Source of the DNA: a virus
Direction: 5' to 3' (one strand)
Virus record (IMG/VR): IMGVR_UViG_2929074307_000005
Length of the DNA: 64,000 bases
Shown here: positions 11,850-61,531 of the stretch, one piece after another
Layout: each line of letters starts with the position of its first letter
Position numbering within the stretch: position 1 is the stretch's first letter
Notes under the pieces: model-generated
Seen by the model: the letters and a program-made list of their open reading frames with translations, nothing else
Told to the model about the DNA's origin: nothing
Databases searched by the model: none
Program-made: the position numbers and the translations under genes

Positions 11850-11956
11850 ACGCCTTAGCTCTAATAGGCGGGATCGTCGTTTGCGCAATCATCGCCTACG
11901 GGGTCGCGCAGATCGTTGCAAACACCACACCACCAAAAAACACGAGGAGAAAATAA
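11846..11956 (+). CDS. Small membrane peptide (36 aa)
   Basis: LALIGGIVVCAIIAYGV; its 3' end encodes the ACACGAGGAG element of the next gene. Confidence 0.3.
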   Translation: MNALALIGGIVVCAIIAYGVAQIVANTTPPKNTRRK

Positions 11957-15395: not shown

Positions 15396-15456
15396 CGCAC
15401 CAACCATGGCGCGGTCACCAGCCGCGCCTGACACCACCAACACGAGGAGAAAACCC

Positions 15457-16523: not shown

Positions 16524-16748
16524 ATGAAGTTTAATTGCGGGCTAACACCAGAAGAGCTACGGGAAGAGAAACGCAAGAAATGGTGCGTGTGGCATAAATG
16601 GTTTGCTTGGCATCCTGTGCGCGTTGGTAGATCGGATTGCCGCTGGCTTGAAACAGTTGAGCGTAAAGCTCAGTATGTTTCTGTCGGTATAATTCTGGAA
16701 GCCAGACCCTATGAGTGCGAATACCGCGCTGTTGAGAAGCCATCGTAA
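16524..16748 (+). CDS. Hypothetical Trp/Cys-rich small protein
   Basis: Shine-Dalgarno sequence upstream; TAATG overlap with the next gene. Confidence 0.4.
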   Translation: MKFNCGLTPEELREEKRKKWCVWHKWFAWHPVRVGRSDCRWLETVERKAQYVSVGIILEARPYECEYRAVEKPS

Positions 16749-18285: not shown

Positions 18286-18300
18286 GGTAACGCCCCCAAC

Positions 18301-20052
18301 ATGCTAACCTTACGAAACTACCAGTCAGAAGCAATAGACGCCGTATTCGACTATTGGCAAGAGGAGGCAGGCAATCCGCTTGTTGATCTTGCGACGGGCT
18401 GCGGCAAGTCGTTGGTTATGGCGTCTTTGATCCAGCGCCTCGTTGAAGGCTGGCCTGATATGCGCGTGATGGTCGTCACCCACGTCGCGGAGCTGATCGA
18501 GCAGAATTATCTGGAATTGCTTGGCGTCTGGCCGTTTGCGCCTGCAGGCATCTATTCGGCTGGTTTGGGTCGTCGTGATGCGCGCAGTCAGATCGTTTTT
18601 GCCGGCATTCAGACTGTTCATAACAAGGCGCAGAAAATCGGTCACGTCGACGTCCTTATGGTCGACGAGTGCCACCTGATTCCGATCAACAGCAACACGA
18701 TGTATCGCAAGTTCATTGATGCGCTGCTCGAGATCAACCCGGACATGAAGATCCTCGGACTGACTGCCACACCTTATCGGCTCGACAGCGGTCGCTTGGA
18801 TGAGGGCGCGGATCGTCTGTTTGATCAGATCGTCTACACCTACGGAGTTGCTGACGGTATCCGCGACGGCTTCCTTGCTCCACTGACGAGCAAGCCGACA
18901 GCAACAGAATACGACGTTAAAGGCGTCGGGCGGCTTGGCGGCGACTACAAACAGCGCGCGCTGGAAGAGGCAATCAATCGAACAGACCTCAATGATGCTG
19001 TGGTTTCTGAGATCATAGCAAAGGGCGCTGATCGTCGCTCCTGGCTTTGTTTCTGCGCCGGTGTAAAGGCTGCGCTGGACGTGCGCGACGTCTTCAGATC
19101 TCGCGGCATTACATGCGAGGCCGTCACGGGGGATACTCCTAAGGAAGAACGCCGCCGCATCCTTGAGGACTTCAAAGCATACCGCATTCAATGTGTGACG
19201 AACAATTCAGTTCTTACGACAGGTTTCAATCATAAGGGTGTTGATTTAATTGCATTTATGCGCCCGACGCTGTCTTTGAGTTTGTACGTCCAAATGGCTG
19301 GGCGTGGCACTCGTCCGCTCTACAAGGCTGGTGCGCCACTGGATACGGTTGAGGAGCGGCTTACTGCTATCTCGGCAGGCCCTAAACGTAATTGCCTCGT
19401 CCTGGATTTCGCGAAGCTTGTCGATCGGCACGGCCCTGTCGACATGGTCGAGCCTAAAGCGCCAAGCGCTGGCAATGGGGAGCCGCCAATCAAGATCTGC
19501 CCGACAGTGCCAGACGACAATGGGGCGATTGGCTGCGGTGAGAAGGTGCACATCTCGCTGATGAAATGCCCATGTTGCGGATATGACTTCCCTCCTAACG
19601 AGGACGAGAAGCTAACCCGCCAAGCCGCTGACGTTCCGATTGTCAGCACCGCCGAAGCAGAATGGCGCAAGGTAACAGGCCGGACGTTTCACTTTCACGA
19701 AGGCAAGGGCGACAAGCCGCCTTCGGTCAAGTGCAGCTACATCGCAGGATATACGCAGATCAATGAATGGCTCTGCCCACAGCATAGCGGGTTTGCGCAA
19801 ACTAAGGCGCATCGATGGTGGACGCAGCATGGAGGCCAGCGGCCGTTTCCAAAGACGGTCATGGAGTGGCTTGAGCGCCAGCGCGAGTTGCTCACCACCG
19901 ACGAAATCAGCGTCGTGCCGAACGGCAAATACTGGAATGTGAAAGACGTGCGGGCTGGAGACGTAGCAGATAACGACAACGTTCCGGAGCCTGCGAATGA
20001 CAATGTGTCTGTTGGCCTTTCGGAGCTTCTAGACGACGAAATTCCATTTTGA
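18301..20052 (+). CDS. SF2 helicase with a zinc ribbon and a C-terminal SSB-tail-like DDEIPF
   Basis: GCGKS Walker A and DECH box. Zinc ribbon CPTVPDDNGAIGCGEK...CPCCGYDFP. C-terminus ...LLDDEIPF. Confidence 0.85.
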   Translation: MLTLRNYQSEAIDAVFDYWQEEAGNPLVDLATGCGKSLVMASLIQRLVEGWPDMRVMVVTHVAELIEQNYLELLGVWPFAPAGIYSAGLGRRDARSQIVFAGIQTVHNKAQKIGHVDVLMVDECHLIPINSNTMYRKFIDALLEINPDMKILGLTATPYRLDSGRLDEGADRLFDQIVYTYGVADGIRDGFLAPLTSKPTATEYDVKGVGRLGGDYKQRALEEAINRTDLNDAVVSEIIAKGADRRSWLCFCAGVKAALDVRDVFRSRGITCEAVTGDTPKEERRRILEDFKAYRIQCVTNNSVLTTGFNHKGVDLIAFMRPTLSLSLYVQMAGRGTRPLYKAGAPLDTVEERLTAISAGPKRNCLVLDFAKLVDRHGPVDMVEPKAPSAGNGEPPIKICPTVPDDNGAIGCGEKVHISLMKCPCCGYDFPPNEDEKLTRQAADVPIVSTAEAEWRKVTGRTFHFHEGKGDKPPSVKCSYIAGYTQINEWLCPQHSGFAQTKAHRWWTQHGGQRPFPKTVMEWLERQRELLTTDEISVVPNGKYWNVKDVRAGDVADNDNVPEPANDNVSVGLSELLDDEIPF

Positions 20053-22751: not shown

Positions 22752-23065
22752 GCCATCCAGATCAATGTCACGTCTGCTTCCGTCACGCCGTGGGACTCGG
22801 GGTGCAGGAGGGCAAGGAACCGATCCGCTGGCTATGCAAGGAGTGCGCAGACATTGCCGAGCATATCCGTTCCCGACGCAGGATGGACCCTTACGAACTG
22901 CGGGCCCTTGATACCGGCGTTGAGGCGGTTGGGGAGTTTTTGCAGTCCATACAGAAAACCGACCTCGCCGACTGCGATGAGCTTGAAGCGCGCATTCTGG
23001 TGAAAACAGCGTGGGAGGCTTGCGGGCGAGGGATGAGGGAAGCACTGAAGGAGGCGCCGTTTTGA
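22748..23065 (+). CDS. Hypothetical Cys-rich protein (CHVC...CKEC)
   Basis: ATGA overlap with the upstream gene. Confidence 0.45.
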   Translation: MSHPDQCHVCFRHAVGLGVQEGKEPIRWLCKECADIAEHIRSRRRMDPYELRALDTGVEAVGEFLQSIQKTDLADCDELEARILVKTAWEACGRGMREALKEAPF

Positions 23066-24093
23066 CCGCCTACTACAACGAATTCGATCCTAAAGCTGCC
23101 GCTTGGCTGCGCGAGCTGATCAAAGCAGGACACATAGCCCCGGGAGATGTTGATGAGCGTTCAATTGTCGATATTCGACCTGCCGACCTCGTCGGATACA
23201 CACAATGTCACTTCTTTGCCGGTATCGGCGTCTGGTCCTACGCATTGCGTCGAGCAGGATGGCACGACGACCGTCCTGTCTGGACAGGTTCATGTCCCTG
23301 CCAACCTTTCAGCGCGGCAGGCAAAGGAGATGGGTTTGCTGACGAGCGGCACCTATGGCCGCACTTCCACTGGCTTATTCAAAACTGCCGACCTGCAGTC
23401 GTCTTTGGCGAGCAAGTTGCGAGCAAGGACGGACTCGGCTGGCTCGACCTTGTACAAGCTGACCTGGAAGGATCGGGCTACGCCAGCGGGGCGGTCGATA
23501 CCTGCGCTGCGGGCTTCGGTGCGCCGCACATCAGACAGCGCCTCTATTGGGTGGCCCACGCCGACGACACGCGATCACAAGGACGGAGGGGAGTGTCAGA
23601 ACGTTCCGCTGAACGCATTGTTGGGGCGAGTGGCGTGGCTGACTGGATGGCCGACGGCGAGATGTGGGGGCAATCCGGAGGGGTACGGGAACGCCGATCG
23701 TCAGAATGGACCGAGAGGAAGGTTGGAGGACACCGTGCCACTGGCAGGTTGGCCGACAACGACAACGACGGACGCATTGCGCCACCCATCACCGAACTTC
23801 AAAACAAAGAACGTCACACTGAACCACGCAGCAGCAATGGCAGGCCCGGCCCGACTAACGGCCACTGGTCAGATGCTGACTGGCTCTTTTGCCGGGATGG
23901 AAAGTGGCGGCCAGTTGAACCCGGCACATTCCCGCTGGCTCATGGGTCTGCCGCCAGAGTGGGACGATTGCGCGGTTACGGCAATGCAATCAATGCCGAG
24001 CAAGCGCAAGCGTTCATCGAAGCGTATCGCGAAACCGAATTAGTTGCAGCCAACGACAATCACTGCAGCAATACGCTGTGGCCCTCCGCATAG
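23062..24093 (+). CDS. DNA cytosine-5 methyltransferase
   Basis: Motif I FFAGIGV, motif [11 protein letters not shown], and a QxRxR-like HIRQRLY. Start uncertain (TTG 23062). Confidence 0.7.
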
Positions 24094-24271: not shown

Positions 24272-26452
24272 ATGCATACTAACATCACGTCCGTTGTCGA
24301 AGAAGACCCAATGCTCGATGTTGCGTTGTCGTATCAGGCACAAAACTGGCCCGTTTTCCCATGCCGCCACCGCGACGAGGAGATTATCGACCCGCAAACC
24401 GGCGAAATTGAAATCCTTGCCACCAAGACCCCGCTGACCAGCAACGGGTTCCGTGGCGCGACGCTGAATGAGCGCATCGTCCGTGAATACTGGCGCCGCA
24501 ACCCTTACGCAATGATTGGCGTGCCAACAGGTGCGCCTATAGGTGCATGGGTTCTAGATATCGACCCGAAACACGGCGGCGACGAAACGCTTGCCGCGCT
24601 TGAGGCCGCACACGGCGCGCTACCTGCTACGCTAACCGCAGAAACCACGAGCGGCGGACGGCACTATTTCTTTCGTCATCGGCAGGGCGTTCGCAACCGT
24701 GGCGCGCTTGGCTCCGGCGTCGACGTGCGCGGTGACGGTGGTTATGTCATTGCGGCCGGCAGCGTGCCCGAGGTTGGCCTGCCTTACCGTTGGATATCTG
24801 AGCAAGAGCCGATCGACGCGCCAGACTGGTTGCTGGAACTGGTGCTGCCGCGCTCATATGAGAGCACATACACCGCAGCACCGTCTGTTAGCGGCAAGAT
24901 CAATGACCGCTATGTCGAGCGTGCAGTTCAATCTGAGCTGGACGATCTTGCGCTTGAACCGATGGGTAATCGCAACAACCGGCTGAACGACGCCGCGTTT
25001 CGTTTGGGCACGTTCGTTGGAGCCGGAGCTCTGGCTGAATCCGAAGCACGCGCTCTGCTACAAGACGTGGCACGAGGTTGGGGCCGGGACTGGCCGCGCT
25101 GTGTAAAGACGATCGACAACGGACTTGCTGCCGGTGCCCGCAGCCCGCGTAGTGTGCCACAGAACGACAACGATAACACGCGTCTGGTCGATATCAGCCG
25201 TATGATTGCCAATGGACTGGCGAAAGCGGAGGCGCGCACCGACGTGGTCGCAGAGCCAGTTTCGGATTTCGATTCATCTATAAACCAACAGGAACAAACT
25301 ACTGAAAATAAACGCGCAATCATTGCTACGCCATTCGTATGGAAAGACCCGGCGACGCTTCCACGGCGCGAGTTTGCATTCGGTAAGCACTTCATTCGCA
25401 AGTATGTGTCGGTGACGGTCGCGCCGGGCGGTCTCGGCAAAACTGCGAACAGCATCGTCGAAGCATTGGCCATGGCGTCGGGTAAAGCGCTCAATGGCAC
25501 GAAGCCGCCGAAGCGTCTTAAGGTCTGGTTGTTCAATGCCGAAGATCCGCGCGACGAGCTTGAGCGCCGCATTATGGCCGCTTGTATTCATTTCAATCTG
25601 AAGCCAGCAGATATCGACGGGCATCTGTTTCTAGACACAGGCCGCGAGCAGGAATTGGTCATTGCGATCGATGACAAGAAAGGCGTGCGGATTCAGGAAC
25701 CCGTCGTTGAAGCTGTTGTTGAAACGATCTCGGAGCTTGGCATTGACGTGATGATTGTTGACCCGTTCGTGTCGACGCACCAAGTCAATGAAAACGACAA
25801 CGGCGCAATCGACAAGGTGGCCAAGCTTTGGGCGCAGGTAGCGGATCGAACAAACTGCTCAATCGATATCGTGCATCATCTGCGAAAGGTGAGCGATCGT
25901 GAAGCAACTGTTGAAGACGCTCGCGGTGCGGTTTCGCTGATCGGTGCGGCACGTTCGGTGCGCGTGCTTAACCGTATGTCGGAAGCGCAAGCCAGTGAAG
26001 CTGGCCTTACACATGAAGCGCGGTTTTCATATTTCAGCGTGGTCTATGGCAAGTCGAACTTGTCAGCACTGTCGCACAAGGCTGACTGGCGCAAGCTGGA
26101 AAGTGTCGCGCTGGGGAACGGGCAGGGCCTGACCAAGCCTCAAGACCATGCGCCGGTCGTGACGTCATGGGCATGGCCGACAAGTGAGGAAGTTGCTGAG
26201 ACATTGACCGAGGACGAACGCGACGCAATCCGGGGTGTTGTGAACGGCGGCATGTATAAGCCGGCACCGCAGGCCAAGGATTGGGTAGGGCGCGCCGTTG
26301 CGTATGCACTGCAGCTGGACGTCGACGAAGAGACGGAAAAGAAGCGGGTGGGCATGATCACCAAAGCGCTGTTTGCAGAGGGCTTCCTAATGAAGGTGGA
26401 AGACCGGGACCCTGTTCAACGCAGGGCCACGACGTTTGTTCGAGCGATGTGA
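24272..26452 (+). CDS. Bifunctional primase-polymerase (PrimPol N-domain) fused to a RecA-like/AAA_25 ATPase domain
   Basis: PrimPol motifs DIDPKHGG and GYVIAAGS; P-loop APGGLGKT; phage P4-alpha-like organisation. Confidence 0.8.
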   Translation: MHTNITSVVEEDPMLDVALSYQAQNWPVFPCRHRDEEIIDPQTGEIEILATKTPLTSNGFRGATLNERIVREYWRRNPYAMIGVPTGAPIGAWVLDIDPKHGGDETLAALEAAHGALPATLTAETTSGGRHYFFRHRQGVRNRGALGSGVDVRGDGGYVIAAGSVPEVGLPYRWISEQEPIDAPDWLLELVLPRSYESTYTAAPSVSGKINDRYVERAVQSELDDLALEPMGNRNNRLNDAAFRLGTFVGAGALAESEARALLQDVARGWGRDWPRCVKTIDNGLAAGARSPRSVPQNDNDNTRLVDISRMIANGLAKAEARTDVVAEPVSDFDSSINQQEQTTENKRAIIATPFVWKDPATLPRREFAFGKHFIRKYVSVTVAPGGLGKTANSIVEALAMASGKALNGTKPPKRLKVWLFNAEDPRDELERRIMAACIHFNLKPADIDGHLFLDTGREQELVIAIDDKKGVRIQEPVVEAVVETISELGIDVMIVDPFVSTHQVNENDNGAIDKVAKLWAQVADRTNCSIDIVHHLRKVSDREATVEDARGAVSLIGAARSVRVLNRMSEAQASEAGLTHEARFSYFSVVYGKSNLSALSHKADWRKLESVALGNGQGLTKPQDHAPVVTSWAWPTSEEVAETLTEDERDAIRGVVNGGMYKPAPQAKDWVGRAVAYALQLDVDEETEKKRVGMITKALFAEGFLMKVEDRDPVQRRATTFVRAM

Positions 26453-29970: not shown

Positions 29971-30046
29971 GCCCTTGTAGCTCAGTTGGGAGAGCGGCTG
30001 CCTTGTAAGCAGATGGTCCGGGGTTCTATTCCTCGCGAGGGCACCA
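29971..30046 (+). tRNA. tRNA-Thr (anticodon UGU), 76 nt with encoded CCA
   Basis: Cloverleaf folded by hand: acceptor GCCCTTG/CGAGGGC, D-arm GCTC..GAGC, anticodon loop cTTGTaa, T-arm CGGGG/CCTCG; one G-A mismatch in the anticodon stem. Confidence 0.65.
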
Positions 30047-30053
30047 ATTCAAT

Positions 30054-30129
30054 GCGGAGTGGAGAAGTGGTCATCTCGTCTGGTTCATACCCAGAAGACC
30101 GTCGGTTCGAATCCGACCTACCGCAACCA
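30054..30129 (+). tRNA. tRNA-Met-like (anticodon CAU) with an imperfect acceptor stem; possible degenerate phage tRNA
   Basis: Perfect T-arm GTCGG-TTCGAAT-CCGAC and anticodon arm TCTGG-ttCATac-CCAGA. Initiator-like 3' end CCGCAACCA. Acceptor stem has two mismatches. Confidence 0.45.
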
Positions 30130-30243
30130 AACAAGACCAATGGCATCTGTAATTCTTGACCTCTTGCAGATGCTTATCAGCGGGTGAGCGAAAGCTCCCC
30201 GCTGTTCTTGATAGAGGTCATTATCAGCCAATGGAGTCAAGCC

Positions 30244-30900
30244 ATGGGTTCTTTCAGGGATTTATCAGGCCAGATATTTGGTCGACTGACCGTAATTGAT
30301 CGAGCACCCAATAAGGGTGGGCGTACAATGTGGAATTATTTGTGTGAATGCGGGAACGCAGGAAGTACTGCGTCATACTACCTTACAACGGGCGGAACCA
30401 CGAGTTGTGGCTGTTTCCATCGAGAAATGGTTGGAAAAATGGGCCGCGATCAAATCATCCATGGTGCCACGAAGGGCGGCAAGCTGACAGCGACTTACTC
30501 ATCGTGGAGCGCAATGCGTGAAAGGGTGCTGAGTAAAACGCATCACGCATACGCTAGGTATGGCGGACGAGGTATTAAGATTTGTGATCGCTGGCTTGTG
30601 GGTGAAGGTTTGCTTTCCGGCTACGAGTGCTTCCTAGAAGATATGGGCGAGCGACCTGACGGGCATTCAATAGACCGCATTGACACCAACGGTAACTATG
30701 AGCCCGGTAATTGCCGTTGGGCTACACCTGCAACGCAGGCGAGAAACGCAGTCGACAATAAGATGTCAGGCATGGATGTTGGCATCCTTCACGCCATGGT
30801 GGCTAATGATAACTCACCTCTGTCAACGATGGCTGATAGGTTCGGTATATCCAAGCAGCATGCTTGGAGGATCAAGACAGGGCAGAGATGGGCGGCATAG
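30244..30900 (+). CDS. HNH_3-type endonuclease-like protein
   Basis: HSIDRIDTNGNYEPGNCRWATPATQARN; C-terminal VANDNSPLS. Confidence 0.55.
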   Translation: MGSFRDLSGQIFGRLTVIDRAPNKGGRTMWNYLCECGNAGSTASYYLTTGGTTSCGCFHREMVGKMGRDQIIHGATKGGKLTATYSSWSAMRERVLSKTHHAYARYGGRGIKICDRWLVGEGLLSGYECFLEDMGERPDGHSIDRIDTNGNYEPGNCRWATPATQARNAVDNKMSGMDVGILHAMVANDNSPLSTMADRFGISKQHAWRIKTGQRWAA

Positions 30901-31193
30901 GCCAACGAAGCGTTGAGGCTCGTCAGTATCACAAGCTTTATCGTACAGCGCGTTGGCAGCGTCTAAGGCAACATCAACTCGCACAGCAACCGCTTTGTGA
31001 GTGGTGCCTGCAAATGGAAATCATTGAACCTGCAACTGAGGTCCACCACCACGGGCCGCATCGAGGCGACTTGGATAAATTCTGGTCTGGGCCGTTCATA
31101 TCCACATGCAAGTCATGCCACGCCTCACGCGGTCAACGTGAAGACCTCGGGCAAACCATCGTGACTTTCGGGGCCGATGGGTGGCCGGTTTAA
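30888..31193 (+). CDS. Small HNH endonuclease of the terminase-associated type
   Basis: YRTARWQRLRQHQLAQQPLCEWC...EVHH; located immediately upstream of TerS. Confidence 0.75.
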   Translation: MGGIGQRSVEARQYHKLYRTARWQRLRQHQLAQQPLCEWCLQMEIIEPATEVHHHGPHRGDLDKFWSGPFISTCKSCHASRGQREDLGQTIVTFGADGWPV

Positions 31194-37334: not shown

Positions 37335-37757
37335 ATGCAACCAAAGAATTACAAAACCGACGGCGGTGATACGCTCGTCATCGGCGGCACACTGAAGGTT
37401 GAAGCCGGTGCAACGGTTGAAGGCCTTGAAGGTGGCGGCGGTGCTACTGCCTGGGCCGACATTACGGACAAGCCTGCCGTTATTGCTGCCGGTGCGGATC
37501 AAGCCGCTGCGCGAACTGCAATTGGAGCAGGAACGTCGAGTTTGGCTGTAGCCACCACCGCTCCTGCCGCTTTGGCTGCCGCTGCTGCTGTCGGCACTGG
37601 CACTACCGCTGCTCGTGCAGATCATGTGCATGCTCTTCCTGCAGCTACTGCGCTTCAGGTTGTTGCCGGAACTGGTGGTCTCGCCGCTGGTAATCTGCAG
37701 GTTACACTACAGGCACTTGCGACTCGCATCGCAGCTCTTGAGGCCGCCGCAGGTTAA
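37335..37757 (+). CDS. Ala/Gly-rich hypothetical structural protein
   Basis: Low-complexity A/G/T-rich sequence. Confidence 0.4.
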   Translation: MQPKNYKTDGGDTLVIGGTLKVEAGATVEGLEGGGGATAWADITDKPAVIAAGADQAAARTAIGAGTSSLAVATTAPAALAAAAAVGTGTTAARADHVHALPAATALQVVAGTGGLAAGNLQVTLQALATRIAALEAAAG

Positions 37758-37824
37758 TGCCTTGGGTTCGCTTCTCCGAAGACTTCGACTGGAAGCCACT
37801 CCCGCAAGTCACGATTGCTTATAA

Positions 37825-37862
37825 GGGGTCGGAACAAGAGCAGTCCAAAATCGTACGCTAAG
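37825..37862. repeat. Tn3-family left terminal inverted repeat
   Basis: GGGGTCGGAACAAGAGCAGTCCAAAATCGTACGCTAAG, matching the reverse complement of the right end. Confidence 0.8.
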
Positions 37863-37992
37863 CCCGAACGAACGATGAAGTTACGGTCAGTTCGGTTCGG
37901 ATTGAAACTACATCGTAAGGCTACTTCCGCTACCCGATTTACCATCTTGGATTGCTTTGCAGATATGCCAATCAAGCTCGCTATGATGGATA

Positions 37993-38343
37993 TTAAAGGT
38001 CTATAGAGAGCTCATAAATGCCTAGCGCAGCGAGCACCGGCTTTGAATAAGTAATCTGCCGTATGTTCGTAAGTTCCCACGCCAACCACCCCTCTTCAAA
38101 ATAGTTTGCGCAAGCTGCCACCATATCCGTATGCTGAAACGGCCTGACCGATGCGATCCTCACAATGGCTACAGCTCTGCCGTCTGGATCCTCTTCGCCA
38201 TCGGCTCGCAGGAAACGGTTATTCTCAACGATCAGTAGATCTTCGTCGGGCCGCAGGCTTGGAGACCACCGCCTCACCTCAAGCGTTTTAAGACCATTCG
38301 CGATTCTCAATCCGCTTGGCGCGACAATGGATAAAGCCTTCAT
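37993..38343 (-). CDS. ASCH/PUA-like domain protein (transposon cargo), tentative
   Basis: Size and weak ASCH-like pattern; lies inside the transposon. Confidence 0.4.
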   Translation of the reverse strand: MKALSIVAPSGLRIANGLKTLEVRRWSPSLRPDEDLLIVENNRFLRADGEEDPDGRAVAIVRIASVRPFQHTDMVAACANYFEEGWLAWELTNIRQITYSKPVLAALGIYELSIDL

Positions 38344-38474
38344 GCTGTGCTCCTTCCTGTAAAGAGCGGTTTGAACACTTCTTGCTGCCTGCCCGATACG
38401 ACGACGACATTCGCACTGGCACGACCATGAACACTTATGTTGTCAGTTCGCTCCGGTCGGAACTAACTCCAAAC

Positions 38475-41450
38475 TCATGCAGCACGCAACAATCGACTGG
38501 TGCGGCGCAACGGCCTGAAGCCGTCTGTCATTTGCTGCTCTGCATCCCAGGAATAGATCCCGGTGAGGTTTATGTGTTCCCAACTGAGTGGCGAGACATG
38601 TTTCAATAACTCGTCTGGAATATTCCGGCCTTGTTGTCGCAAATGTGCGGCAGCACGACTGAGATAGACCGTATTCCAGTAAACAATTGCGCTCACTACC
38701 AGATTGAGGCCGGATGCTCGAAATGCCTGGCTGTCGTAGGATCGATCACGAATTTCTCCGCGCTCATGGAAAAAGACAGCGCGTTTCAGCTTGTGGGCGG
38801 CTTCGCCCTTGTTGAGACCAGCCTGACAACGCCGGCGCAGCGCCGGATTTGAATACCACTCGATCATGAACAGCGTGCGCTCAATGCGACCTAGCTCACG
38901 CAAAGCTTTTGCAAGTTCGCTGGATTTCGGAGAAGCAGAGAACCTTTTCAGGATCGTTGACGGCGCGACTGTGCGTGTTGTGATCGACGCTGCCAAACGT
39001 AACAGGTCATCCCAATGTTCGAGAATGAGGGCGCTGTTGATCGGTGCGCCGATATGACTTTCCAGCGCCGGATAGGCATCGGCCTTCTCGAATGTGTGGA
39101 ATTTTCGGTCCTTGATGTTTCGAAGCCTCGGCGCAAAACGCTTGCCGATCAGGGCGAAGATCGCAAAAACATGATCGCTCGCGCCGCCGGTATCGGTAAA
39201 ATGCTCCTCGATTTCCAGAACCGTGTCGTGATCAAACAGGCCGTCGAGGACATAGACGGCCTCGCTTTCAGTCGGGCTGATTGGCAATATGCCAAAATAT
39301 CCGTACTGGTCAGAGAGATGGCTGTAGAATTTCGAACCCGGTTCACTGCCATAGTGCAGATTGATATCACCGCGCTTGGCGGCTCGGTCGCTGGCACGGA
39401 AGAATTGCCCATCGGATGATGCGGTTGTTCCATCGCCCCAGAGCAGCGAATGCGGATGGCGCATATGAGCGTCTGTTATACAAGCCTGCGCCGCCCTGTA
39501 GGTTTCAGATCTGGCGTGAAAGGTGCGCATCCACCCGATCTGGTGCGCGCTGATCCCTTTCGACGCTCCTGCCATGCGTTTGGGTCCGAGGTTCGTGCCG
39601 TCCGCCAGAACGCCGGCGAGCATTGCGGAGATATTTTGCGGCGTATCTCCCGTCCGGACATGCGTGAACTGGTCGGCGAACCCGGTCCAGTCATGTACTT
39701 CCCTGAGAAGGTCGGGTACTTCGATCAACGGGTACATGTCGCTGATTTCGATGTTCAGTTCATCGGCGGCGGCGGGAATATCGCTCGTACGCGGCGTCAC
39801 GATCAAGGTTCCGGCTTTCAGCCTGACGTGATCAAGCTTTCTATTGCGAGCGCGATAAGCCAGGCGCTTGAGATTAAAGTCCATCATCTGCCGGACTTCC
39901 GTGAGCCAGGCTGCGCCGTCCCCTTGAACACCGAGACCGAGTTTGCCTTCATCTTTCATGGCGACGAAAGCAGGCTTAGGCATGAGATGTTCATCAATCG
40001 GCCGAAATGATCGGCTCCCGTCAACCCAGACATCCCCCGAGCGTAGCCGATCGCGCAAATGGGCCAGAGTTGCAATCTCGTAAAGCCGCCGATCCGGCTT
40101 TCCGTCCACGAATATCAGCCTTTTCTCAGATGACCCAAGATGGCCGACCGGCACGCGATCCGGTAGAACACGCCTCCCTTCCGTATAAAGCCCTTTCAGG
40201 GTTGAAAGCGCTGCCAGAAGCGGATCATACGTTCGGTGTGAGTGAAACGTGAACGTCTGAAGGAACACGCCTGCGAACTTTCGAACATTCGCGTATTGTT
40301 CTGCCGCCGTCGCCAAAGGCGATGTGTCAGCGTTCTCCACCATGGCTTCAAGGTTAGGCTTGATCTGGAGCAGCTTATGCCAGCCAACCTCCCTGTTTAT
40401 CACTCTGATTGCATCTTCATCAGCATCGTTGGCGTTCTGCAAGGCGACAATTGTGTCGAGGAATAATTTGAGCGCTCTGGATGTTTCCATCCGAGCATTC
40501 ATATGCCGCTGCTTTTTCCTGTTATTGGCTTTTGAGAATAGCCGACCGATCAGCTTGATGAACATCGTTACCGCATCGTCGGTGAGCTTCTGGCCGAGCT
40601 TGATAAGCTGAGTCACAATTGTAGCGCGCCGACGACTGGAACTGAAGTCACTGGCAAGCCATGCCGGAGTGGCATCGCCCTCGCGGATCATCTGATCCCA
40701 CCGACCGGCGGGAATGCGAAGTTGCAGCCGGGGATCAATCTCAAGATGGCGTAGGAACGCTATACGCTCCGTCATTCCGATCAGATTTCCTGCTCCCGGG
40801 GCGTCAGGAGCGGACCGCAACCAATGAAACCGCGTCTGACGGATCGCCGGGTCAACGTCCAATAGGATATCAAGAGCTTCCAGCTTTTCATCACTCAGAT
40901 CAGCAATGAGCGCACTCTCAGCGCGCCGACGAGCAATAGCACGGGCTGCGAGCCCCATTCGCTCGATCATATTCAATGCCGGTAGGAGAACGCATTGTTC
41001 GCGGAATGTGGCGATAATCGCTTTTGCTATCGACAACCCTTTATCTGTTTGGGAGGCTGCTTCAATACCCGCACGCAAAGCGGCGCGACGGTCTTCAGCG
41101 GTTGCACTCCGCAGATCGAGATAGCGCTGCAAATGTGCGATATGTTCGCGTCGGGTTTCCTCACGCGTTGCGTATAAACTAAATAACCGTGGATCCACGT
41201 TGATTTGCTCGGCGATATAGTTGAGTAGCATCGGTGGGGGAACTTCATTCGGCAGGAGCGCTCTTCCAGGGTAGCGCATCAGGCAAAGTTGCACAGCAAA
41301 GCCAAGCTGATTTTGCTTGCGCCGACGAAGCTCTATTTCCAGGCGATCCGCCGGAGAAAGCGAATAATGTCTGATCAAACTATCTTCGTCGGTAGGGATG
41401 TTGAAAAGCTCATGTCGGTCCTGAATTTTTAGAAGCGTCCGCTTGGCCAT
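38475..41450 (-). CDS. tnpA: Tn3-family transposase
   Basis: 991 aa; N-terminus [37 protein letters not shown] is typical of TnpA. Confidence 0.9.
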
Positions 41451-41602
41451 TCTTTACTCTCGCAACTCTGTACTACCGGTCTACCCCCTGTACGGAATCG
41501 TCCGATTGCGTACAGGGGCAAAACACCCTGTCCACAAATTATCTTGACATGGTTTCGAACAGTGGAGATATTTCGGACATCCTATTCGGACGAAATGAGC
41601 CC
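41451..41602. promoter_or_regulatory. Res site and divergent promoters between tnpA and tnpR
   Basis: Inverted repeats CTGTACGG...CGTACAGG in the divergent intergenic region. Confidence 0.5.
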
Positions 41603-42208
41603 ATGCCACGTACCTTTGCCTATGTTCGCGTATCCACGACCGGACAGACCACCGAAAACCAGATCCAGGAAATTAAAGCTGCCGGTTTCCATGTCGAACC
41701 GCGCCGGATCGTCACCGAGACGGTTTCCGGCAGCACGGCCATTGCGCAGCGCCGTGGTTTCTCCCGATTATTGGATAAGATGGAGGCCGGTGACATTCTG
41801 ATCGTCACCAAGCTCGACCGCCTTGGTCGTGATGCTATCGATGTAAGTAGTACCGTCAAAGCCCTCGCAGAAATGGGCGTCAGGGTTTACTGCCTCGCAT
41901 TAGGTGGTGCTGATCTAACCAGTTCAGCCGGCACAATGACCATGAATGTGCTGAACGCCGTGGCGCAGTTCGAGCGCGACCTTCTGATCGAACGGACGCA
42001 ATCAGGCCTCAAGCGCGCCAAGTCGGAAGGGAAATCTTTGGGTCGTCCATCCACACTTGACGATAAACAAAAGCAGGACGTCCTTGCCGATCTGGTGGAA
42101 GGAATAAGTATTTCAGGCATTGCTCGAAAATTTTCCACGAGCAGACAAACAATCATGCGCATCCGGAATCAGGCTGCTGAAAACGTTGGGAAAATGAATG
42201 GCAAATGA
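41603..42208 (+). CDS. tnpR: Serine recombinase / resolvase
   Basis: YVRVSTTGQ catalytic Ser motif; C-terminal HTH. Confidence 0.85.
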   Translation: MPRTFAYVRVSTTGQTTENQIQEIKAAGFHVEPRRIVTETVSGSTAIAQRRGFSRLLDKMEAGDILIVTKLDRLGRDAIDVSSTVKALAEMGVRVYCLALGGADLTSSAGTMTMNVLNAVAQFERDLLIERTQSGLKRAKSEGKSLGRPSTLDDKQKQDVLADLVEGISISGIARKFSTSRQTIMRIRNQAAENVGKMNGK

Positions 42209-42752
42209 ATCCTGGCAATCGTTTAAGATGCTTACTGAGCGCTTGGAACTGCGTCTGGTCATGGTATCAGATAGCGTTGCACTGCAAAAGCTAATGACAC
42301 CTGCGATCAGTCAATGGGTGGCAGTTTGGCCATACCCTCTTACGCAAGAAGCGGCAGAGAGGATAATTGATAAAGCGCTTATTGGGCATTCAGTGCAACG
42401 CACGCTTCCACTGGTAATCGTGAACCAAGCTGAAAATCAGGTTATTGGTTGGATCAAGGTCGATATTGAAGAATGTGATGGAAAGCGAATTGGCGAAATC
42501 GGCTACTGGCTTTCTGAGGAAGTTCACGGCATGGGATTTGGGTATGAAGCTGCCCAAGGACTGATTGCTGCGTGTTTTGAAGAATTGGAAATTCACTCTA
42601 TGCGAGCAGGCGCGCAGACCGCAAATGCCGTTTCTCATAATCTCCTGATGAAACTTGGAATGCACAGGACTGGCGAGCAACTTGTCTTTGCGCCCGCTCG
42701 TGGCCGAGATGAATTGTGCACCTATTTCGAACTGGAAAGGTCAAGAACCTAA
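42198..42752 (+). CDS. GNAT N-acetyltransferase (RimJ/RimL-like)
   Basis: GYWLSEEVHGMGFGYEA acetyl-CoA binding region. Confidence 0.7.
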   Translation: MANESWQSFKMLTERLELRLVMVSDSVALQKLMTPAISQWVAVWPYPLTQEAAERIIDKALIGHSVQRTLPLVIVNQAENQVIGWIKVDIEECDGKRIGEIGYWLSEEVHGMGFGYEAAQGLIAACFEELEIHSMRAGAQTANAVSHNLLMKLGMHRTGEQLVFAPARGRDELCTYFELERSRT

Positions 42753-42803
42753 TTTTTGGGCCATCTCGCCGATCATTGATTTATCTTCCACAAAAATCAG
42801 AGT

Positions 42804-43748
42804 TTGCAGCAAATGGATCACTTCTCGCTAAGCGCACAAAAGCTCTCGGAAAACCTGGAAACCGATATCGAGTTTGTTCTAAGCCACAGCGCGCCCGTCC
42901 AGTTTGCCGATCTGACTTCCGGAGCAAAGAATTCCAAGGCAATTCGCCTGGTAGATGAATCCCGACAACATGCAGGATCCTTCAAATATAGGGGAGCCAT
43001 ACTCGGAGTTAGCAAACATCCGAAAGGCGTTGTTGCTTGCGGTTCCGGAAACTTCCCCATAGCCGTCGGGTTGGCTGCATCAAAGCTTGGCATTCCAGCG
43101 ACAGTCGTTATGCCTGACGATGCACCTGCTGCAAAACGAGAAATGGCCCTGAATTCTGGTTCGGAAGTCCTTCTCGTACCACGATCGGACTTTGTTAATG
43201 ATGCGGAACTGGAAGCGAAAGCGCGGGGATTGCCATTGTTGCATCCGTTCAGGGACGCATCCATGCTGGTCGGGAGCTGTTCCCTTGGTGTGGAACTGGC
43301 TCATGCAATGAAGGATGATGCTTCTCCTGACGATGCCATTGTCGTAGCTTGCGGTGGCGGTGGATTGGCAGCAGGAACCTCATTGGGGCTCAGGATCAGC
43401 GGGATCGAGAACGATATTTATGTAGCTGAGCCTGAGCATTATCCACGCCTGTATGCTGCTTTTAACGTGTCGCATCCTGTGGAGATCGTCGCTCAAGAGC
43501 AGACAATCTGTGATGCTCTGAGAGTTACCGAAATAGGCTCGCTTGCTTTTAGCATTCTCCAGAAAATTGGGGTCCGTACACTAGCAGCATCAGACGCAGG
43601 CGTCATCGAAGCGCAAGCGCATATGGCCCGTGAAACAGGCATACAAGCGGAGCCCAGCGGAGCGTTGGCTTTGGCAGCGATTTCCGAGCAAGAACTTCCA
43701 AGGCGCTATCACAGGCTTTGGGTGATCGTATGTGGCAGCAACGTTTGA
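42804..43748 (+). CDS. PLP-dependent Ser/Thr dehydratase-family enzyme
   Basis: PLP-lysine motif SFKYRGA; Gly-rich CGGGGLAAG. Confidence 0.7.
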   Translation: MQQMDHFSLSAQKLSENLETDIEFVLSHSAPVQFADLTSGAKNSKAIRLVDESRQHAGSFKYRGAILGVSKHPKGVVACGSGNFPIAVGLAASKLGIPATVVMPDDAPAAKREMALNSGSEVLLVPRSDFVNDAELEAKARGLPLLHPFRDASMLVGSCSLGVELAHAMKDDASPDDAIVVACGGGGLAAGTSLGLRISGIENDIYVAEPEHYPRLYAAFNVSHPVEIVAQEQTICDALRVTEIGSLAFSILQKIGVRTLAASDAGVIEAQAHMARETGIQAEPSGALALAAISEQELPRRYHRLWVIVCGSNV

Positions 43749-43783
43749 AGTTAGCATAACTGCACGTTCCTCTTTCGTTCGAC

Positions 43784-43821
43784 CTAAGCGTGCGATTTTG
43801 AACTAATCTTGTTCTGACCCC
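43784..43821. repeat. Tn3-family right terminal inverted repeat
   Basis: Reverse complement GGGGTCAGAACAAGATTAGTTCAAAATCGCACGCTTAG. Confidence 0.8.
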
Positions 43822-43924
43822 TATAAGGCTGGCTGGTCCGGCCTTATGACAACGCCTTGCGCAACTGCTGCAATAGAACGCAACAAGGCTGTGCGGCTGA
43901 AAACCCCCAAGAAAGGCGAGAAGG

Positions 43925-44275
43925 ATGGCGACACGTAAAGGCGCAGGTGCGCTCAACAACATCGTCGTCTTTCAGCAGCGTGAAGCGGTGAGAGACGAGG
44001 GCGGCGGCACAAGCCAAGAGTGGGTCGACAAGTTCGAAACTGCGGCTCGTTTGCAGCCCCGACTTGGTTCTGAAACCGACATCGCCGCTCGTACGCAAGG
44101 TATCCAGCCTTATACGCTTGTTGTTCGCAGCGAACCGCGAACACGAGGCGTTACGCCGTCATGGCGCGCGAGAAACAAGCGAACTGGCGTTCTTTATGAA
44201 ATCCAGTCTTGTGCTAACCCCGACGAAGTTAATCAGTACATTGAAATGCGCGCTGTCGTGCAGGGCGGTGGCTGA
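43925..44275 (+). CDS. Head-tail joining / head closure protein
   Basis: Size, order and sequence character. Confidence 0.6.
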   Translation: MATRKGAGALNNIVVFQQREAVRDEGGGTSQEWVDKFETAARLQPRLGSETDIAARTQGIQPYTLVVRSEPRTRGVTPSWRARNKRTGVLYEIQSCANPDEVNQYIEMRAVVQGGG

Positions 44276-57054: not shown

Positions 57055-58446
57055 TTAATAGGTTGGAGATGAAATTCGTGCTGATTTATCCATCCTTTTG
57101 CGGTACTCGTCACGCAAGTCTTCTCGTAGAAAGCTTAAAGCCCAGTTGTGAGTTGCACTCTCAATCTCTGGAAGATATTCTCCAATTGATCCGTCAAACT
57201 TGTCATTTATCACGCCGCGCAAGTAGTCAAATATCTCAAAGTGGATAAACAAACGCTCGTCGCTAAAGCTAACGTCTTGGCCAGGCCGACCAAGTCGATA
57301 AAAATAGTGAGCTTCCGGTATCACAACTACAGATGTAGCTAGAGAAAGCGCAAGATAGTTGAATGGCAAATCGTCAAAGCGCTTCAAATTTTCGTTGAAA
57401 TCAATTTCGTACTTTTCTAGAAAATTTCTACGATAAATACGACGCCAGATTTGAGGTGCGTTATTGATGTAGTCTGGTTTATGGCTCGTCTCGTATGGAA
57501 AAGAGATCGCCCCAAATGGAGGTTCGGACACAATTTCGGCCTCTCCACCTTCCTCGTAAGCTTTGACGAAACCGCATTGACCGACATCCTTCATTCCAGG
57601 CAAGACAGACGTAATTAAGTCTTCAAACATATTTGGTGAAACCCAATCATCCCCGTCCACGAACCCTACATAAAGCCCCGACGCTACTTGCAGTCCTGCA
57701 TTCCGGGCTGATGCGCAGCCTCCATTAGCTTTATGGATGACTTTTAGCTTTCCTGGGTAGCTTGCTGCCCATTGATCAGCAATTTCTCCGGATCTGTCTT
57801 TAGTTCCATCATCAACAACAATAATCTCGATCTCCTCAAGTGTTTGATTACATAAAGTTTCCAGACATTGAGGAAGATATTTTTCAACTCCATAAGCTGG
57901 CACTATTACAGATACGTAAATTTTGGATTCATGATTTGAACTACTTAAAGTACCGCTCTCTAAAATTAGGTGCACATGGAATTTTTCAGCAATCAACGAA
58001 AGATCGCGATGCAATTGATAAGCACTCCGAAGAAAACCTTGAGCGGCTCCCGCAAGGTAGCGGATTTTTATGCAGGATTTGAGTAGTGAATCTAGCAGTT
58101 CATCGGTCAACCAAGTTTCGTCTACACGACAAAAATCAATAGATTCATCACCAATATGATCCCGGAGTGCCGCTAAACTATCTATATATATTACTCCGGT
58201 CGACCTTTGAGATCGAACTGGATCCAAAACGAATATCCTAGCAAGAGGGTAGTTCTCTTTTATAAAAGCCGTTTCCAATCCTGACCGATCACCCACAATA
58301 AGACACCGAGGTTGCGGCGTTGATGGCGAAGTTATTGGTCCATAGAAGGAGTCCGCAATGCGGCGAAGGTCGCTGCCCAGTAATGATTTCTCAATCCCGT
58401 GCTTCTCTAAAGTTTGTGCAACTTTTTTCCAATGATAAGGGATCAT
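57055..58446 (-). CDS. Family 2 glycosyltransferase with an extra N-terminal ~165-aa domain (low GC)
   Basis: VSVIVPAYGVEKYL...IIVVDDGTKD GT2 signature. Confidence 0.75.
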   Translation of the reverse strand: MIPYHWKKVAQTLEKHGIEKSLLGSDLRRIADSFYGPITSPSTPQPRCLIVGDRSGLETAFIKENYPLARIFVLDPVRSQRSTGVIYIDSLAALRDHIGDESIDFCRVDETWLTDELLDSLLKSCIKIRYLAGAAQGFLRSAYQLHRDLSLIAEKFHVHLILESGTLSSSNHESKIYVSVIVPAYGVEKYLPQCLETLCNQTLEEIEIIVVDDGTKDRSGEIADQWAASYPGKLKVIHKANGGCASARNAGLQVASGLYVGFVDGDDWVSPNMFEDLITSVLPGMKDVGQCGFVKAYEEGGEAEIVSEPPFGAISFPYETSHKPDYINNAPQIWRRIYRRNFLEKYEIDFNENLKRFDDLPFNYLALSLATSVVVIPEAHYFYRLGRPGQDVSFSDERLFIHFEIFDYLRGVINDKFDGSIGEYLPEIESATHNWALSFLREDLRDEYRKRMDKSARISSPTY

Positions 58447-59603
58447 TGCTTACCTCGGTATTTGATCATTCGAACGGGGGCCATCATTCGAGATACTAAC
58501 TCGTTCTTGATCACCGTTTTTTGTTGCATATTTTTTACCAAAGGCGCTTCAATAGCAGAACTATCCAGTGGTCTGCCGCCAATTAATCTAAGTAAACCCA
58601 ACTCGTCTTTTTTACCAGAAAGTGAGCTGAAATTGCGCTCTCTTTCATTCTCACTGTAGCGCATTGCATACAGCTCCCACCAATCAGCAGGTAATCCGTC
58701 AATCAAGCTTAAGAATTGTCGGATATAGCTATGTTTCAGTAGTGATGGACAATACTCACCACACCAATGCACTAGTCTGGAAAGCTGACCGCACAGGTTG
58801 GCGCCCGCATCGGAAGAAAGCGTCATCACGTATTTAGAATCAACAATTTCTTTGACTCCAGTTAGGATATCAAACCTACTTTTTCCTTTTGATGCGGTAA
58901 TTTGGCCTGCTCTATCGATTCTATAGAGCAACAAGTAATCGTTCAAAATTCCTATTCGTCCTGCGCGCGCTATCGCGCGAGAATGCGGAGCCACGTCTTC
59001 AAAAATGACGCCCTCTGGAAATTGAGTAATTTCGCGATCATAGAAATCTTTTCTAAAAACACGAATTGAAGAGTTGGGTTCAATACGAAATAACCGCGGC
59101 TCGCGGTAAATGTTTGTTACAAGAAAGTCTCGGTTATTGAGAATCTTATCTAAGATGAAATGATCGCCAAATAATTGGCTTCTCAGTGTCAGATTGCTGA
59201 AACTTTTTGCTCGTGCTAAAACAAGATCGAGATTATTTGCTTCCGCTAAGTCAACCATCGTACGATATACGAAAGACTGTACAAGATCATCGCTGTCAAG
59301 AAAGGCAATATACTTGCCGCGAGCAAATTGAGCGCCGGTATTACGGGCGGCTCCAAGGCCGCCATTCTCTTTTTGTACGAAACGTACGTTGATTGAGTTA
59401 CTATTGATCCATTGAAGAATTTTTTCTGCAGATGAATCAGGGCTGCCGTCATCAACAATTACAATTTCAAAATCATCACCTGCCGAAGTCGCGATCGACT
59501 GTAGGGTCTCTAATACGTATCGTTCTGTATTATAGACAGGAACAATTACAGATAGGAGCTTTTCGCCATCACTAGTACGCTCCATGACAATTCTGTGTAC
59601 CAT
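58443..59603 (-). CDS. Family 2 glycosyltransferase (low GC)
   Basis: LSVIVPVYNTERYV...IVIVDDGSPD; ATGA overlap with the downstream glycosyltransferase. Confidence 0.75.
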   Translation of the reverse strand: MVHRIVMERTSDGEKLLSVIVPVYNTERYVLETLQSIATSAGDDFEIVIVDDGSPDSSAEKILQWINSNSINVRFVQKENGGLGAARNTGAQFARGKYIAFLDSDDLVQSFVYRTMVDLAEANNLDLVLARAKSFSNLTLRSQLFGDHFILDKILNNRDFLVTNIYREPRLFRIEPNSSIRVFRKDFYDREITQFPEGVIFEDVAPHSRAIARAGRIGILNDYLLLYRIDRAGQITASKGKSRFDILTGVKEIVDSKYVMTLSSDAGANLCGQLSRLVHWCGEYCPSLLKHSYIRQFLSLIDGLPADWWELYAMRYSENERERNFSSLSGKKDELGLLRLIGGRPLDSSAIEAPLVKNMQQKTVIKNELVSRMMAPVRMIKYRGKQ

Positions 59604-60242: not shown

Positions 60243-60667
60243 TCTACCCTACTCAATGTTCGATCTGGTTATTCTTGCTGCAAACGCCGTAGATCATTGG
60301 CCTGTAAAAGTGGCTAACTACCATGATTACGGTTTGAGGCAATCAAATTGAACAACGAATAAGTGCGTGGCGCTGCCATTGATGCGGTTTTTTTCATGCC
60401 GAAAGAAAACCCCGACCGGTTGTGTGCGGTCAGGGCTACGCAGGTCTCCAGTCGCGTCTCGAAGATGAACTGCGCTCGCCAAGCTTACACCCACCCTGGA
60501 ATGAAGAAAACCCCGGCGACCGCAAAGCCCACCGGGGTAATGCGCCTTGCTCTGATGTGGGTCAGGACAGCTTGCAAGGTCATCATCTCACAATAATAGG
60601 AAAACACAATGGCACGACGCATAAACGCGGTGGCGCTTTCGCTCATTTAATCTCCAAGGACAATCAA

Positions 60668-61531
60668 ATGAACAAAACAACGTTCTTCGCGTATGCGAGG
60701 CGCGCGCCTTTTGGCGGCCGTCTTTCGCAGGCGCAAGTCAGCGGCACCGAGGCAATTCTTGCCGAAGCCGCTAAAAGGAATCTGCCCGACGAACAGATCG
60801 CATACATCCTCGCGACCGTCTTCCACGAGACTGGCGGCAAGATGCAACCGGTTGTCGAGAAACTGAATTACTCGTCGGCTGCGCGCATTAGGCAGGTTTG
60901 GCCTAAGCGCTTTTCTTCGGTCGCTGCTGCCCAGCCTTATGTGAATAATCCGCAGGCGCTTGCAAATAAGGTCTACGGCGGTCGCATGGGTAACGACAGC
61001 GTTAACGACGGCTGGACTTATCGCGGACGTGGCCTGCCTCAGATCACTGGCGAGGACAATTACAAGAAGTTCGGCATTGCCGATACACCGGAGAAGGCGC
61101 TGGAGTTAGCCACTGCAATCCGCATCCTGTTTGAAGGAATGGTGCTGGGCAAGTTTACGGGCCGCAAGCTCGCGGATTATTTCGGCAAGGGCAAAGCCGA
61201 TCCAGAAGGCGCGCGAGTCATCGTCAACGGAACCGATAAGGCCACGCTGATCGCCGGCTATTACCGCAACTTCCTCGACAGCCTTATCGCTGCGCGCGAA
61301 ATGAAGGCGGCAGCTGTCGAAGATGCCAAGCCTGACGATGTGCCGTTGCTTAAGGATAAGACGGTGCAGACCATTGTCGCCGCTGGCGGCGGTACGTTCG
61401 TAACCGGACTTATAGGTGCTGTTTCGAACCCGTGGGCCTTCCTGACAGTTGCCTTGATCGTGGTTGCCTTGGGTGGCGGCTTCTGGCTTTGGCATACAGG
61501 TAGGCTGGAACTGAAAAGGGCGGCGGCGTGA
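60668..61531 (+). CDS. Endolysin, GH19/lysozyme-like, with a C-terminal hydrophobic anchor
   Basis: HETGG...YRGRGLPQITGEDNYKKFG motifs; C-terminal transmembrane-like FLTVALIVVALGGGFWLW. Confidence 0.65.
   Translation: MNKTTFFAYARRAPFGGRLSQAQVSGTEAILAEAAKRNLPDEQIAYILATVFHETGGKMQPVVEKLNYSSAARIRQVWPKRFSSVAAAQPYVNNPQALANKVYGGRMGNDSVNDGWTYRGRGLPQITGEDNYKKFGIADTPEKALELATAIRILFEGMVLGKFTGRKLADYFGKGKADPEGARVIVNGTDKATLIAGYYRNFLDSLIAAREMKAAAVEDAKPDDVPLLKDKTVQTIVAAGGGTFVTGLIGAVSNPWAFLTVALIVVALGGGFWLWHTGRLELKRAAA

Follow-up and report, generated by a model that had tools for sequence, protein, structure and literature searches.

The 64,000-nt stretch IMGVR_UViG_2929074307_000005 (hereafter the window) carries what its gene content identifies as an integrated prophage of HK97-like, cos-type design, and within the late region of this prophage we found a 5,997-bp Tn3-family transposon at positions 37825–43821, bounded by two copies of TATAA. 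Its host is Ochrobactrum sp. BH3, whose draft genome (GCA_004341145.1) is 100% identical to the window in all segments compared. The reading that best accounts for the data as a whole, and that we regard as very likely, is that a Tn3-family element has split a small phage gene of the phrog_29233 family and has probably crippled a prophage whose genes otherwise appear intact. The features concerned are listed below in the order in which they occur (TSD, target-site duplication; IRL and IRR, left and right terminal inverted repeats, IRs; PLP, pyridoxal phosphate; aa, amino acids).

37757–37824, + strand: 5′ part of the split phage gene, codons 1–22 and part of 23 (from reconstruction and the phrog_29233 match)
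37820–37824, no strand: left TSD copy, TATAA (same 5-mer at the other end; single copy in 15 empty-site relatives)
37825–37862, + strand: IRL, GGGG...ACGCTAAG (32/38 match to IRR)
37993–38343, − strand: ASCH-domain protein, 116 aa (PF04266, E = 1.2e-8), 3′ of tnpA
38475–41450, − strand: tnpA, predicted 991-aa Tn3-family DDE transposase (NF033527 equivalog; PF01526 and PF13700)
41451–41602, no strand: putative res region, a 152-bp spacer separating tnpA from the divergent tnpR (contains three conserved blocks)
41603–42208, + strand: tnpR, predicted 201-aa serine resolvase (PF00239, E = 1.2e-35; HTH_7)
42198–42752, + strand: GNAT N-acetyltransferase (Acetyltransf_3), 184 aa (PF13302, E = 1.2e-21)
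42813–43748, + strand: fold-type-II PLP enzyme (PALP), 311 aa (PF00291, E = 2.9e-48)
43784–43821, − strand: IRR (from an inverted-repeat search and recomputation of the ends)
43822–43826, no strand: right TSD copy, TATAA (5-mer identical to the left copy)
43827–43938, + strand: 3′ part of the split phage gene, codons 24–59 and stop, without a start (from reconstruction)

A Tn3-family transposon and its relatives

Recomputation of the ends yielded 38-bp IRs, GGGGTCGGAACAAGAGCAGTCCAAAATCGTACGCTAAG and GGGGTCAGAACAAGATTAGTTCAAAATCGCACGCTTAG, which open with GGGGTC, close with ACGCTAAG and agree at 32 of 38 positions, whereas the best 38-nt inverted match in each of 30 shuffles of the region ranged from 24 to 29. 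The similarity between the two ends runs on to 56 nt at 82%, and the region holds no longer inverted repeat. The ends are thus of the ~38-bp GGGG...TAAG type of the Tn3 family, and they are flanked by a perfect 5-bp TSD of which a single copy is present in empty sites. A first-pass annotation made from the sequence had proposed a Tn3-family insertion of exactly this extent with a TATAA duplication, as well as a gene content of tnpA, res, tnpR, a GNAT, a PLP enzyme and an ASCH gene; the coordinates were reproduced to the nucleotide, and open reading frame (ORF) and domain scans bore out the genes.

The product of tnpA scores 973 bits against NF033527 (cut-off 500), covering profile positions 2–954 of 954, and a Pfam scan recognised PF01526 together with PF13700 (DUF4158). 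It aligns end to end with the Tn4430 TnpA (PDB 7qd8; E = 2.6e-154), and D680, D753 and E883 fall on D679, D751 and E881, the catalytic triad of that enzyme (PMC9579193). We predict it to be a large (~1,000 aa) DDE transposase of the Tn3 type. For tnpR, to which public annotation also gives 201 aa, the translated N-terminus, MPRTFAYVRVST, contains the serine-recombinase motif YVRVST. To delimit res, the spacer in the window was aligned with those of two copies of the element at 90% identity and of two relatives on rhizobial plasmids at 77%. Three blocks proved invariant or almost so even in the rhizobial plasmid relatives (76–78% nucleotide identity), namely CTGTACGGAATCGTCCGATTGCGTACAGGGG, a palindrome at 41485–41518 with 16-nt arms (94%) and the candidate for site I, CCTGTCCACAAATTAYCTTGACA and ATATTTCGGACAKCCTATTCGGACGAAAT. 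This conserved three-block spacer has the appearance of a three-subsite res and, with the recombinase, would make up a cointegrate-resolution module. A promoter-like TTGACA-17-GATATT at 41544–41572 (+ strand) extends across res blocks 2 and 3, 31 nt 5′ of the tnpR ATG.

If the element behaves as its family does, TnpA would bind the 38-bp ends and transpose the element replicatively (paste-and-copy) to a 5-bp target rich in A and T, and the cointegrate so formed would be resolved by TnpR at the three-block res that separates the two divergent genes. On the model of Tn3 and gamma-delta, TnpR may also autoregulate by repressing the promoters embedded in res. The element shares with Tn3 and gamma-delta/Tn1000 the divergent tnpA/res/tnpR arrangement, a DDE transposase of ~1,000 aa, 38-bp GGGG...TAAG ends, a 5-bp AT-rich TSD, a serine resolvase with a helix-turn-helix, a res of ~150 bp with a promoter-like site between the divergent genes, and passengers that lie outside the transposition core. 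Unlike references of this type, it has no antibiotic- or mercury-resistance cargo, and it is distinguished by a GNAT gene coupled to the 3′ end of tnpR and an ASCH gene between tnpA and IRL. The likeness to Tn4430 is a distant one in TnpA, and the resolvase type differs, that of Tn4430 being TnpI. Plasmids of Rhizobium, Shinella, Sinorhizobium and Agrobacterium (for example, NZ_CP032409.1 p4 and pSmeSM11b, NC_010865.1) bear unnamed Tn3-family elements that are 76–78% identical at the nucleotide level over tnpA-res-tnpR and have the same res blocks but carry other cargo or none.

PLP proteins 93–95% identical to that of the element led us to further copies. The same five genes in the same order and the same 5,997 bp, at 90–91% nucleotide identity, occur in L009 (GCA_036678585.1) and L019; Ochrobactrum chromiisoli YY2X has two copies of the element, others lie on metagenome contigs, and fragments were found in Brucella pseudogrignonensis, B. 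daejeonensis, B. pituitosa and Paenochrobactrum pullorum. The Brucellaceae copies differ from that in the window by their ~9–10% nucleotide divergence, by their insertion sites and in lying elsewhere than in this prophage. At least five distinct right flanks are represented among element copies in Brucellaceae genomes and metagenomes. Since copies of 90–91% identity occupy other sites in other Brucellaceae, the element is a mobile unit, and we read 37825–43821 as one intact copy of a Tn3-family transposon, so far without a name, in circulation within the Brucella/Ochrobactrum group. Literature searches found no name or paper for it. A megablast search of PLSDB returned no plasmid with at least 80% of the element, its matches being relatives of tnpA-res-tnpR. 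On Brucella anthropi plasmid p1 (NZ_CP103347.1, L001 5948–9106) there is a 3,159-bp insertion sequence-like derivative, IR-tnpA-IR, with the same type of IR and a 95.5%-identical tnpA but without tnpR, ASCH, GNAT or PLP; on the same plasmid segment (L001 1653–1690), a third, solo IR-like end lies ~4.3 kb away among IS6, IS110, IS5 and IS21 elements.

In the BH3 draft, the left junction is contained in contig SLYR01000003.1, which reads through TATAA and 93 nt into the element, and the right one in SLYR01000008.1, which begins 95 nt inside the right end and continues into TATAA, whereas the element itself forms a contig of its own of 5,999 bp (AA plus the element). Because the flanking contigs carry both junctions, both are read-supported. 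The 95-nt overlaps (k = 95) place the branch points of the assembly graph just outside the element, which fits two or more near-identical genomic copies and suggests that BH3 has at least two.

The interrupted gene and its empty sites

When the element and one of the two TATAA copies are taken out, a 59-codon ORF of 180 nt, MPWVRFSEDFDWKPLPQVTIAYKAGWSGLMTTPCATAAIERNKAVRLKTPKKGEKDGDT, is restored, and its codon 23 is the insertion point. The first-pass annotation had placed the insertion between two genes, the last head gene and a head-tail joining gene; instead, it cuts through this ORF, which is intact in every relative seen. The restored ORF matches phrog_29233 with E = 3.9e-37, its residues 1–59 aligning to positions 2–60 of the 61 in the profile, and this full-length match, together with its position next to the head-completion (Hc1) gene, assigns the predicted product to that family. 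The split gene lies between the genes for the head-tail adaptor and a virion protein on one side and the head-completion gene on the other. At the 5′ end, its ATG (37757) and the stop codon of the preceding gene, which encodes the 140-aa virion protein, overlap in TAATG; at the 3′ end, its own stop (43936–43938) lies inside the head-completion gene, which starts at 43925. Such overlaps on both sides are the signature of a translationally coupled gene of a late operon. What remains to be made of its product is 23 native residues followed by GSEQEQSKIVR, a 34-aa peptide that ends inside IRL, and a 34-aa ORF is indeed called at this place in the draft annotation.

Empty sites were found in all the relatives examined. 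The first-pass annotation had suggested looking for an uninterrupted junction, ...GATTGCTTATAAGGCTGGCTGG..., and a scan of IMG/VR for CACGATTGCTTAYAAGGCTGGCTGGTC retrieved 15 viral contigs (L036–L050), in each of which TATAA occurs once between otherwise identical flanks and the 59-codon ORF is unbroken; amino acid variation in this ORF is mostly confined to the C-terminal half. Two more relatives (L005 and L007), found through an identical head-completion protein, have TACAA at the site, a synonymous change, and hold the homologue of the ORF at the same syntenic place. The ORF is thus intact in 17 of 17 relatives, and the version rejoined from the window is identical to that of L005 at 54 of 59 residues. 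Homologues of phrog_29233 hold the same position in isolated Rhizobium phages as well: in phage RHph_Y3_1 (EVB59_036), the order is capsid, connector, hypothetical, the homologue of the 59-codon ORF and head-tail joining. Relatives of the small ORF among isolated phages were seen at the protein level only; a megablast search of these phages with the tail region gave no match. The 29-mer at the right end of the element is absent from IMG/VR viral contigs.

Some further features of this neighbourhood may be recorded. The Ala/Gly-rich 140-aa ORF upstream of the split gene (37335–37757; phrog_1954, 'virion structural protein') is also present in RHph_Y3_1 and is missing from the close relatives L005 (9503–10014) and L007, where the adaptor gene directly precedes the 59-aa ORF. 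An imperfect 11-bp hairpin (43822–43850; TATAAGGCTGG...CCGGCCTTAT) within the conserved small ORF has the insertion at its foot. In L005, genes for ribosomal protein S21 and a cold-shock-domain protein lie on the opposite strand 3′ of the tape-measure gene (17954–19044).

Cargo genes

The GNAT gene overlaps the stop of tnpR by 11 nt (ATGGCAAATGA), the PLP gene follows 60 nt downstream, and tnpR, GNAT and PLP may form one transcription unit in which GNAT would be translationally coupled to tnpR. The GC content of the GNAT region, 47–48%, is below the element average. By sequence the protein is a RimJ/RimL-like member of Acetyltransf_3 that fell far under every curated NCBIfam cut-off (bits/cut-off: AAC(6′), 17.4/250; ArsN1, 27.5/170; RimL, 23.4/184; RimJ, 23.2/190), and it belongs to a narrow family restricted to the Brucella/Ochrobactrum group. 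The possibility that it is a toxin of a TacT/AtaT-like type II toxin–antitoxin system was rejected, as no antitoxin of the ribbon-helix-helix/DUF1778 type adjoins it and neither tnpR nor the PLP gene encodes an antitoxin domain. Tn3-family transposition modules can embed toxin–antitoxin passengers (Lima-Mendez et al., 2020; PMC7157771), and the GNAT gene resembles these in lying tight against the transposition genes and in being probably under res/TnpR control. Unlike them, it has no antitoxin partner and lies 3′ of tnpR instead of separating res from tnpA or tnpR, and the toxin families that the study lists do not include GNAT.

The PLP enzyme can be placed in the serine racemase/Ser-Thr dehydratase superfamily, and at superfamily level only. 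Its nearest solved structures are Schizosaccharomyces pombe serine racemase (1v71) and Thermus thermophilus threonine deaminase (1ve5), and its translation keeps SFKYRG as the lysine motif and GGGG as the phosphate loop. Compared with the named families PRK08246, threo-3-hydroxy-L-aspartate ammonia-lyase, IlvA, TdcB, EutB and D-serine ammonia-lyase, it stayed under all NCBIfam cut-offs, the best being PRK08246 (168/331 bits) and the next 145/452. Its start on record is the ATG at 42813; an exact-protein look-up with a TTG start gave no match.

The ASCH protein scores 36 bits against PF04266 (cut-off 21.2), and its AlphaFold2 model (pLDDT, the model's confidence score, 93.9) is predicted to have the ASCH, PUA-like fold. 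Foldseek matched this model to EOLA1/CXorf40A, TTHA0113, Zymomonas ZmASCH and TRIP4, the top ones with probability 1.00, and much more weakly to the ac4C amidohydrolase YqfB; the structure of the matched TRIP4 ASCH domain was solved with double-stranded DNA bound. The family is small and highly conserved, with 60–75% identity across Pseudomonas, Rhodobacterales and Roseomonas. Searches of PADLOC-DB gave no match at E ≤ 0.01 for ASCH, GNAT, the PLP enzyme or TnpR, and neither GNAT nor PLP matched a curated resistance or defence family.

The first-pass annotation had singled out GNAT and PLP as an unusual pair, but they are not conserved as one outside this transposon lineage. Homologues of PLP at 62–76% identity are solitary, in varied chromosomal or island settings, and those of GNAT at 54–57% lie in mobile contexts of other kinds that have no PALP gene. 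A co-evolved pathway or conserved operon was rejected on these grounds, and as the homologues occur separately the two genes are best regarded as passengers gathered by accretion. Most likely the cargo is a set of accessory enzymes acquired independently of one another, to which we assign generic activities: most likely N-acetylation of an amine-bearing small molecule for GNAT, and β-elimination or racemisation of hydroxy-amino acids for the PLP enzyme. The one other PLP–GNAT adjacency seen was in an integrase-bearing island of Rhizobium leguminosarum (L014 2966–12718), where a 76%-identical PLP enzyme has as its neighbours an MBOAT gene and the convergent gene of an unrelated, 141-aa GNAT.

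Consequences for the prophage and alternative explanations

Apart from the split gene, the prophage has intact-looking modules for integrase, CI-like repressor, replication, HNH, TerS/TerL, portal, S49 protease, capsid and adaptor, followed by tail genes, tape measure, fibres and endolysin (60422–61531); the integrase gene (1–1254) is cut by the window edge. The element now parts the head from the tail genes by 6 kb, the first 3.6 kb of which (tnpA and ASCH) is antisense. The first-pass annotation had both tnpA and the cargo genes running against late transcription, which is correct for tnpA and ASCH only, since tnpR, GNAT and PLP are on the + strand like the late genes. Untranslated transcripts are prone to premature (Rho-type) termination, and late transcripts entering at IRL would meet 3.6 kb of antisense, untranslated sequence and would likely terminate there; the promoter under TnpR control would then be the main source, by read-out, of head-completion and tail gene expression. 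In a scan combined with RNA folding, no terminator-like site was detected on the + strand at 43748–43925, which makes read-out from beyond the PLP gene into the tail genes possible. The sole strong hairpin between the PLP gene and 43925 is the 11-bp stem, which lies in native phage sequence; it was rejected as a terminator because the fold of 43740–43930 lacks a U-tract and has an overall z-score of 0.13. HNH abutting TerS suggests cos-type, unit-length packaging, and hence that ~6 kb would have been added to the unit genome. From this arrangement, we consider that productive virion formation has probably been lost or strongly reduced, the prophage being crippled by a single lesion. Transposon hits are a known route of prophage decay.

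Several points weigh against this reading. The phage defect, though probable, is what we infer from gene arrangement, and phrog_29233 is a family of unknown function. IRL and IRR mismatch at 6 of 38 positions, the transposition competence of the BH3 copy is read from its sequence, and the presence of several copies in BH3 is suggested by the behaviour of the assembly graph. The promoter and terminator scans report consensus matches at or below shuffle expectation. Finally, the complete copies in L009 and L019 have no matching 5-bp flanks, so that the textbook TSD is seen in the BH3 prophage copy only. The flanks are TACAT/GAGGT in L009 (3008–3012/9010–9014) and TAAAA/TGGAA in L019 (3006–3010/9010–9014), which suggests recombination between copies or adjacent rearrangement after insertion.

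The strongest alternative is a viable phage that bears the transposon as cargo, as P7 bears Tn3, with the split gene dispensable and the tail genes expressed by read-through or from the tnpR promoter. It would suit the co-direction of tnpR-GNAT-PLP with the tail genes and the lack of a terminator-like site before 43925, a head-completion gene whose start and ribosome-binding region are unaltered, and the membership of the split gene in a family of unknown function. Tn3-family transposons also occur in the genomes of a few temperate phages on record (P7, 'transposon:Tn3'; P1; SJ46). These, however, are plasmid-prophages with insertions at tolerated sites and make up most of the 21 among 50,697 phage records that have a Tn3-family TnpA, whereas here a conserved gene of the assembly operon is split in an integrated HK97-like, siphovirus-type prophage. 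That this gene is kept intact at the same position in all 17 related sequences and in isolated Rhizobium phages argues for selection, the late operon now holds a long antisense and untranslated segment, the extra ~6 kb would have to fit the capsid if packaging is of unit length, and the right-end 29-mer is missing from IMG/VR viral contigs. We therefore judge a viable phage unlikely.

Lower still, and in our view improbable, stands an old and immobile fossil, an insertion of some age whose transposon and prophage would both be in decay. The IRL–IRR mismatches and the truncated remnants of the element in other Brucellaceae (L017, L020, L021 and L022) would agree with it. Yet tnpA is full length with its DDE triad, as is tnpR, the TSD is perfect, the halves of the split ORF rejoin as an uninterrupted frame so close to that of L005, and the other prophage genes are full length; moreover, the draft collapses the copies to one contig 100% identical to the window, as near-identical copies would.

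We give similarly little credence to a more elaborate proposal, in which ASCH, GNAT and PLP form a module for modification of, or resistance to, small molecules or antimetabolites under TnpR control, and/or the tail block has been rewired to expression from the tnpR promoter as a step toward domestication. The three genes were not found together outside the element, which counts against a joint module. If true, the rewiring would uncouple tail-gene expression from head production, and the Brucella/Ochrobactrum group, in which the element spreads, includes opportunistic pathogens.

An assembly artefact, in which a repeated 6-kb contig was scaffolded into the prophage and the real site is empty, could be raised because the element is a separate contig in GCA_004341145.1 and the flanking contigs stop at it, but it is very improbable: the junctions lie within the flanking contigs, one with the left and one with the right end of the element and both with TATAA, as for one simple insertion. 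A mixture of occupied and empty sites was likewise rejected as the cause of the contig breaks, since an empty-site allele would branch the graph 2 nt inside the element and not 93–95. An ancestral moron or island of the phage lineage, to which only the similar GC contents of element (52.8%) and window (53.2%) would point, is refuted by the 17 related phages that lack the element at a site with the ORF intact, as well as by its occurrence in non-phage contexts and by the IRs and TSD, and we accord it next to no probability.

Elsewhere in the prophage, two HNH genes lie back to back just upstream of TerS (30184–30900 and 30864–31193), and a third lies in the early region (13648–14283). Adjacent genes for tRNA-Thr(TGT) and tRNA-Met(CAT) occupy 29971–30129, between the replication and packaging modules; an Rfam search of the whole window returned these two tRNAs and nothing else. 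At 15406–16515 lies a gene for a DNA polymerase III beta sliding clamp with all three domains, and nearby are genes for an SPFH/Band-7 protein (11881–12807), a Cas4-like exonuclease (16748–17674), a C5 cytosine methylase (23011–24093) and a Prim-Pol/AAA_25 primase-helicase (24272–26452). Between the tail-fibre genes and endolysin are two family-2 glycosyltransferase genes (− strand; 57055–59603), which may be morons for surface-polysaccharide modification or serotype conversion.

The case is a clean but ordinary one of one mobile element disabling another, tidy rather than surprising, and its significance is modest. It adds to the Brucellaceae catalogue an unnamed Tn3-family element with non-resistance cargo, whose enzymes are candidates for substrate screening, though no particular new activity is indicated for them. 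It is also a record of a precise and probably inactivating hit, recent in appearance, in a prophage assembly operon and, with isogenic-like empty sites available in relatives, offers a natural experiment in the form of a clean knockout of phrog_29233, a conserved small gene of the virion module.

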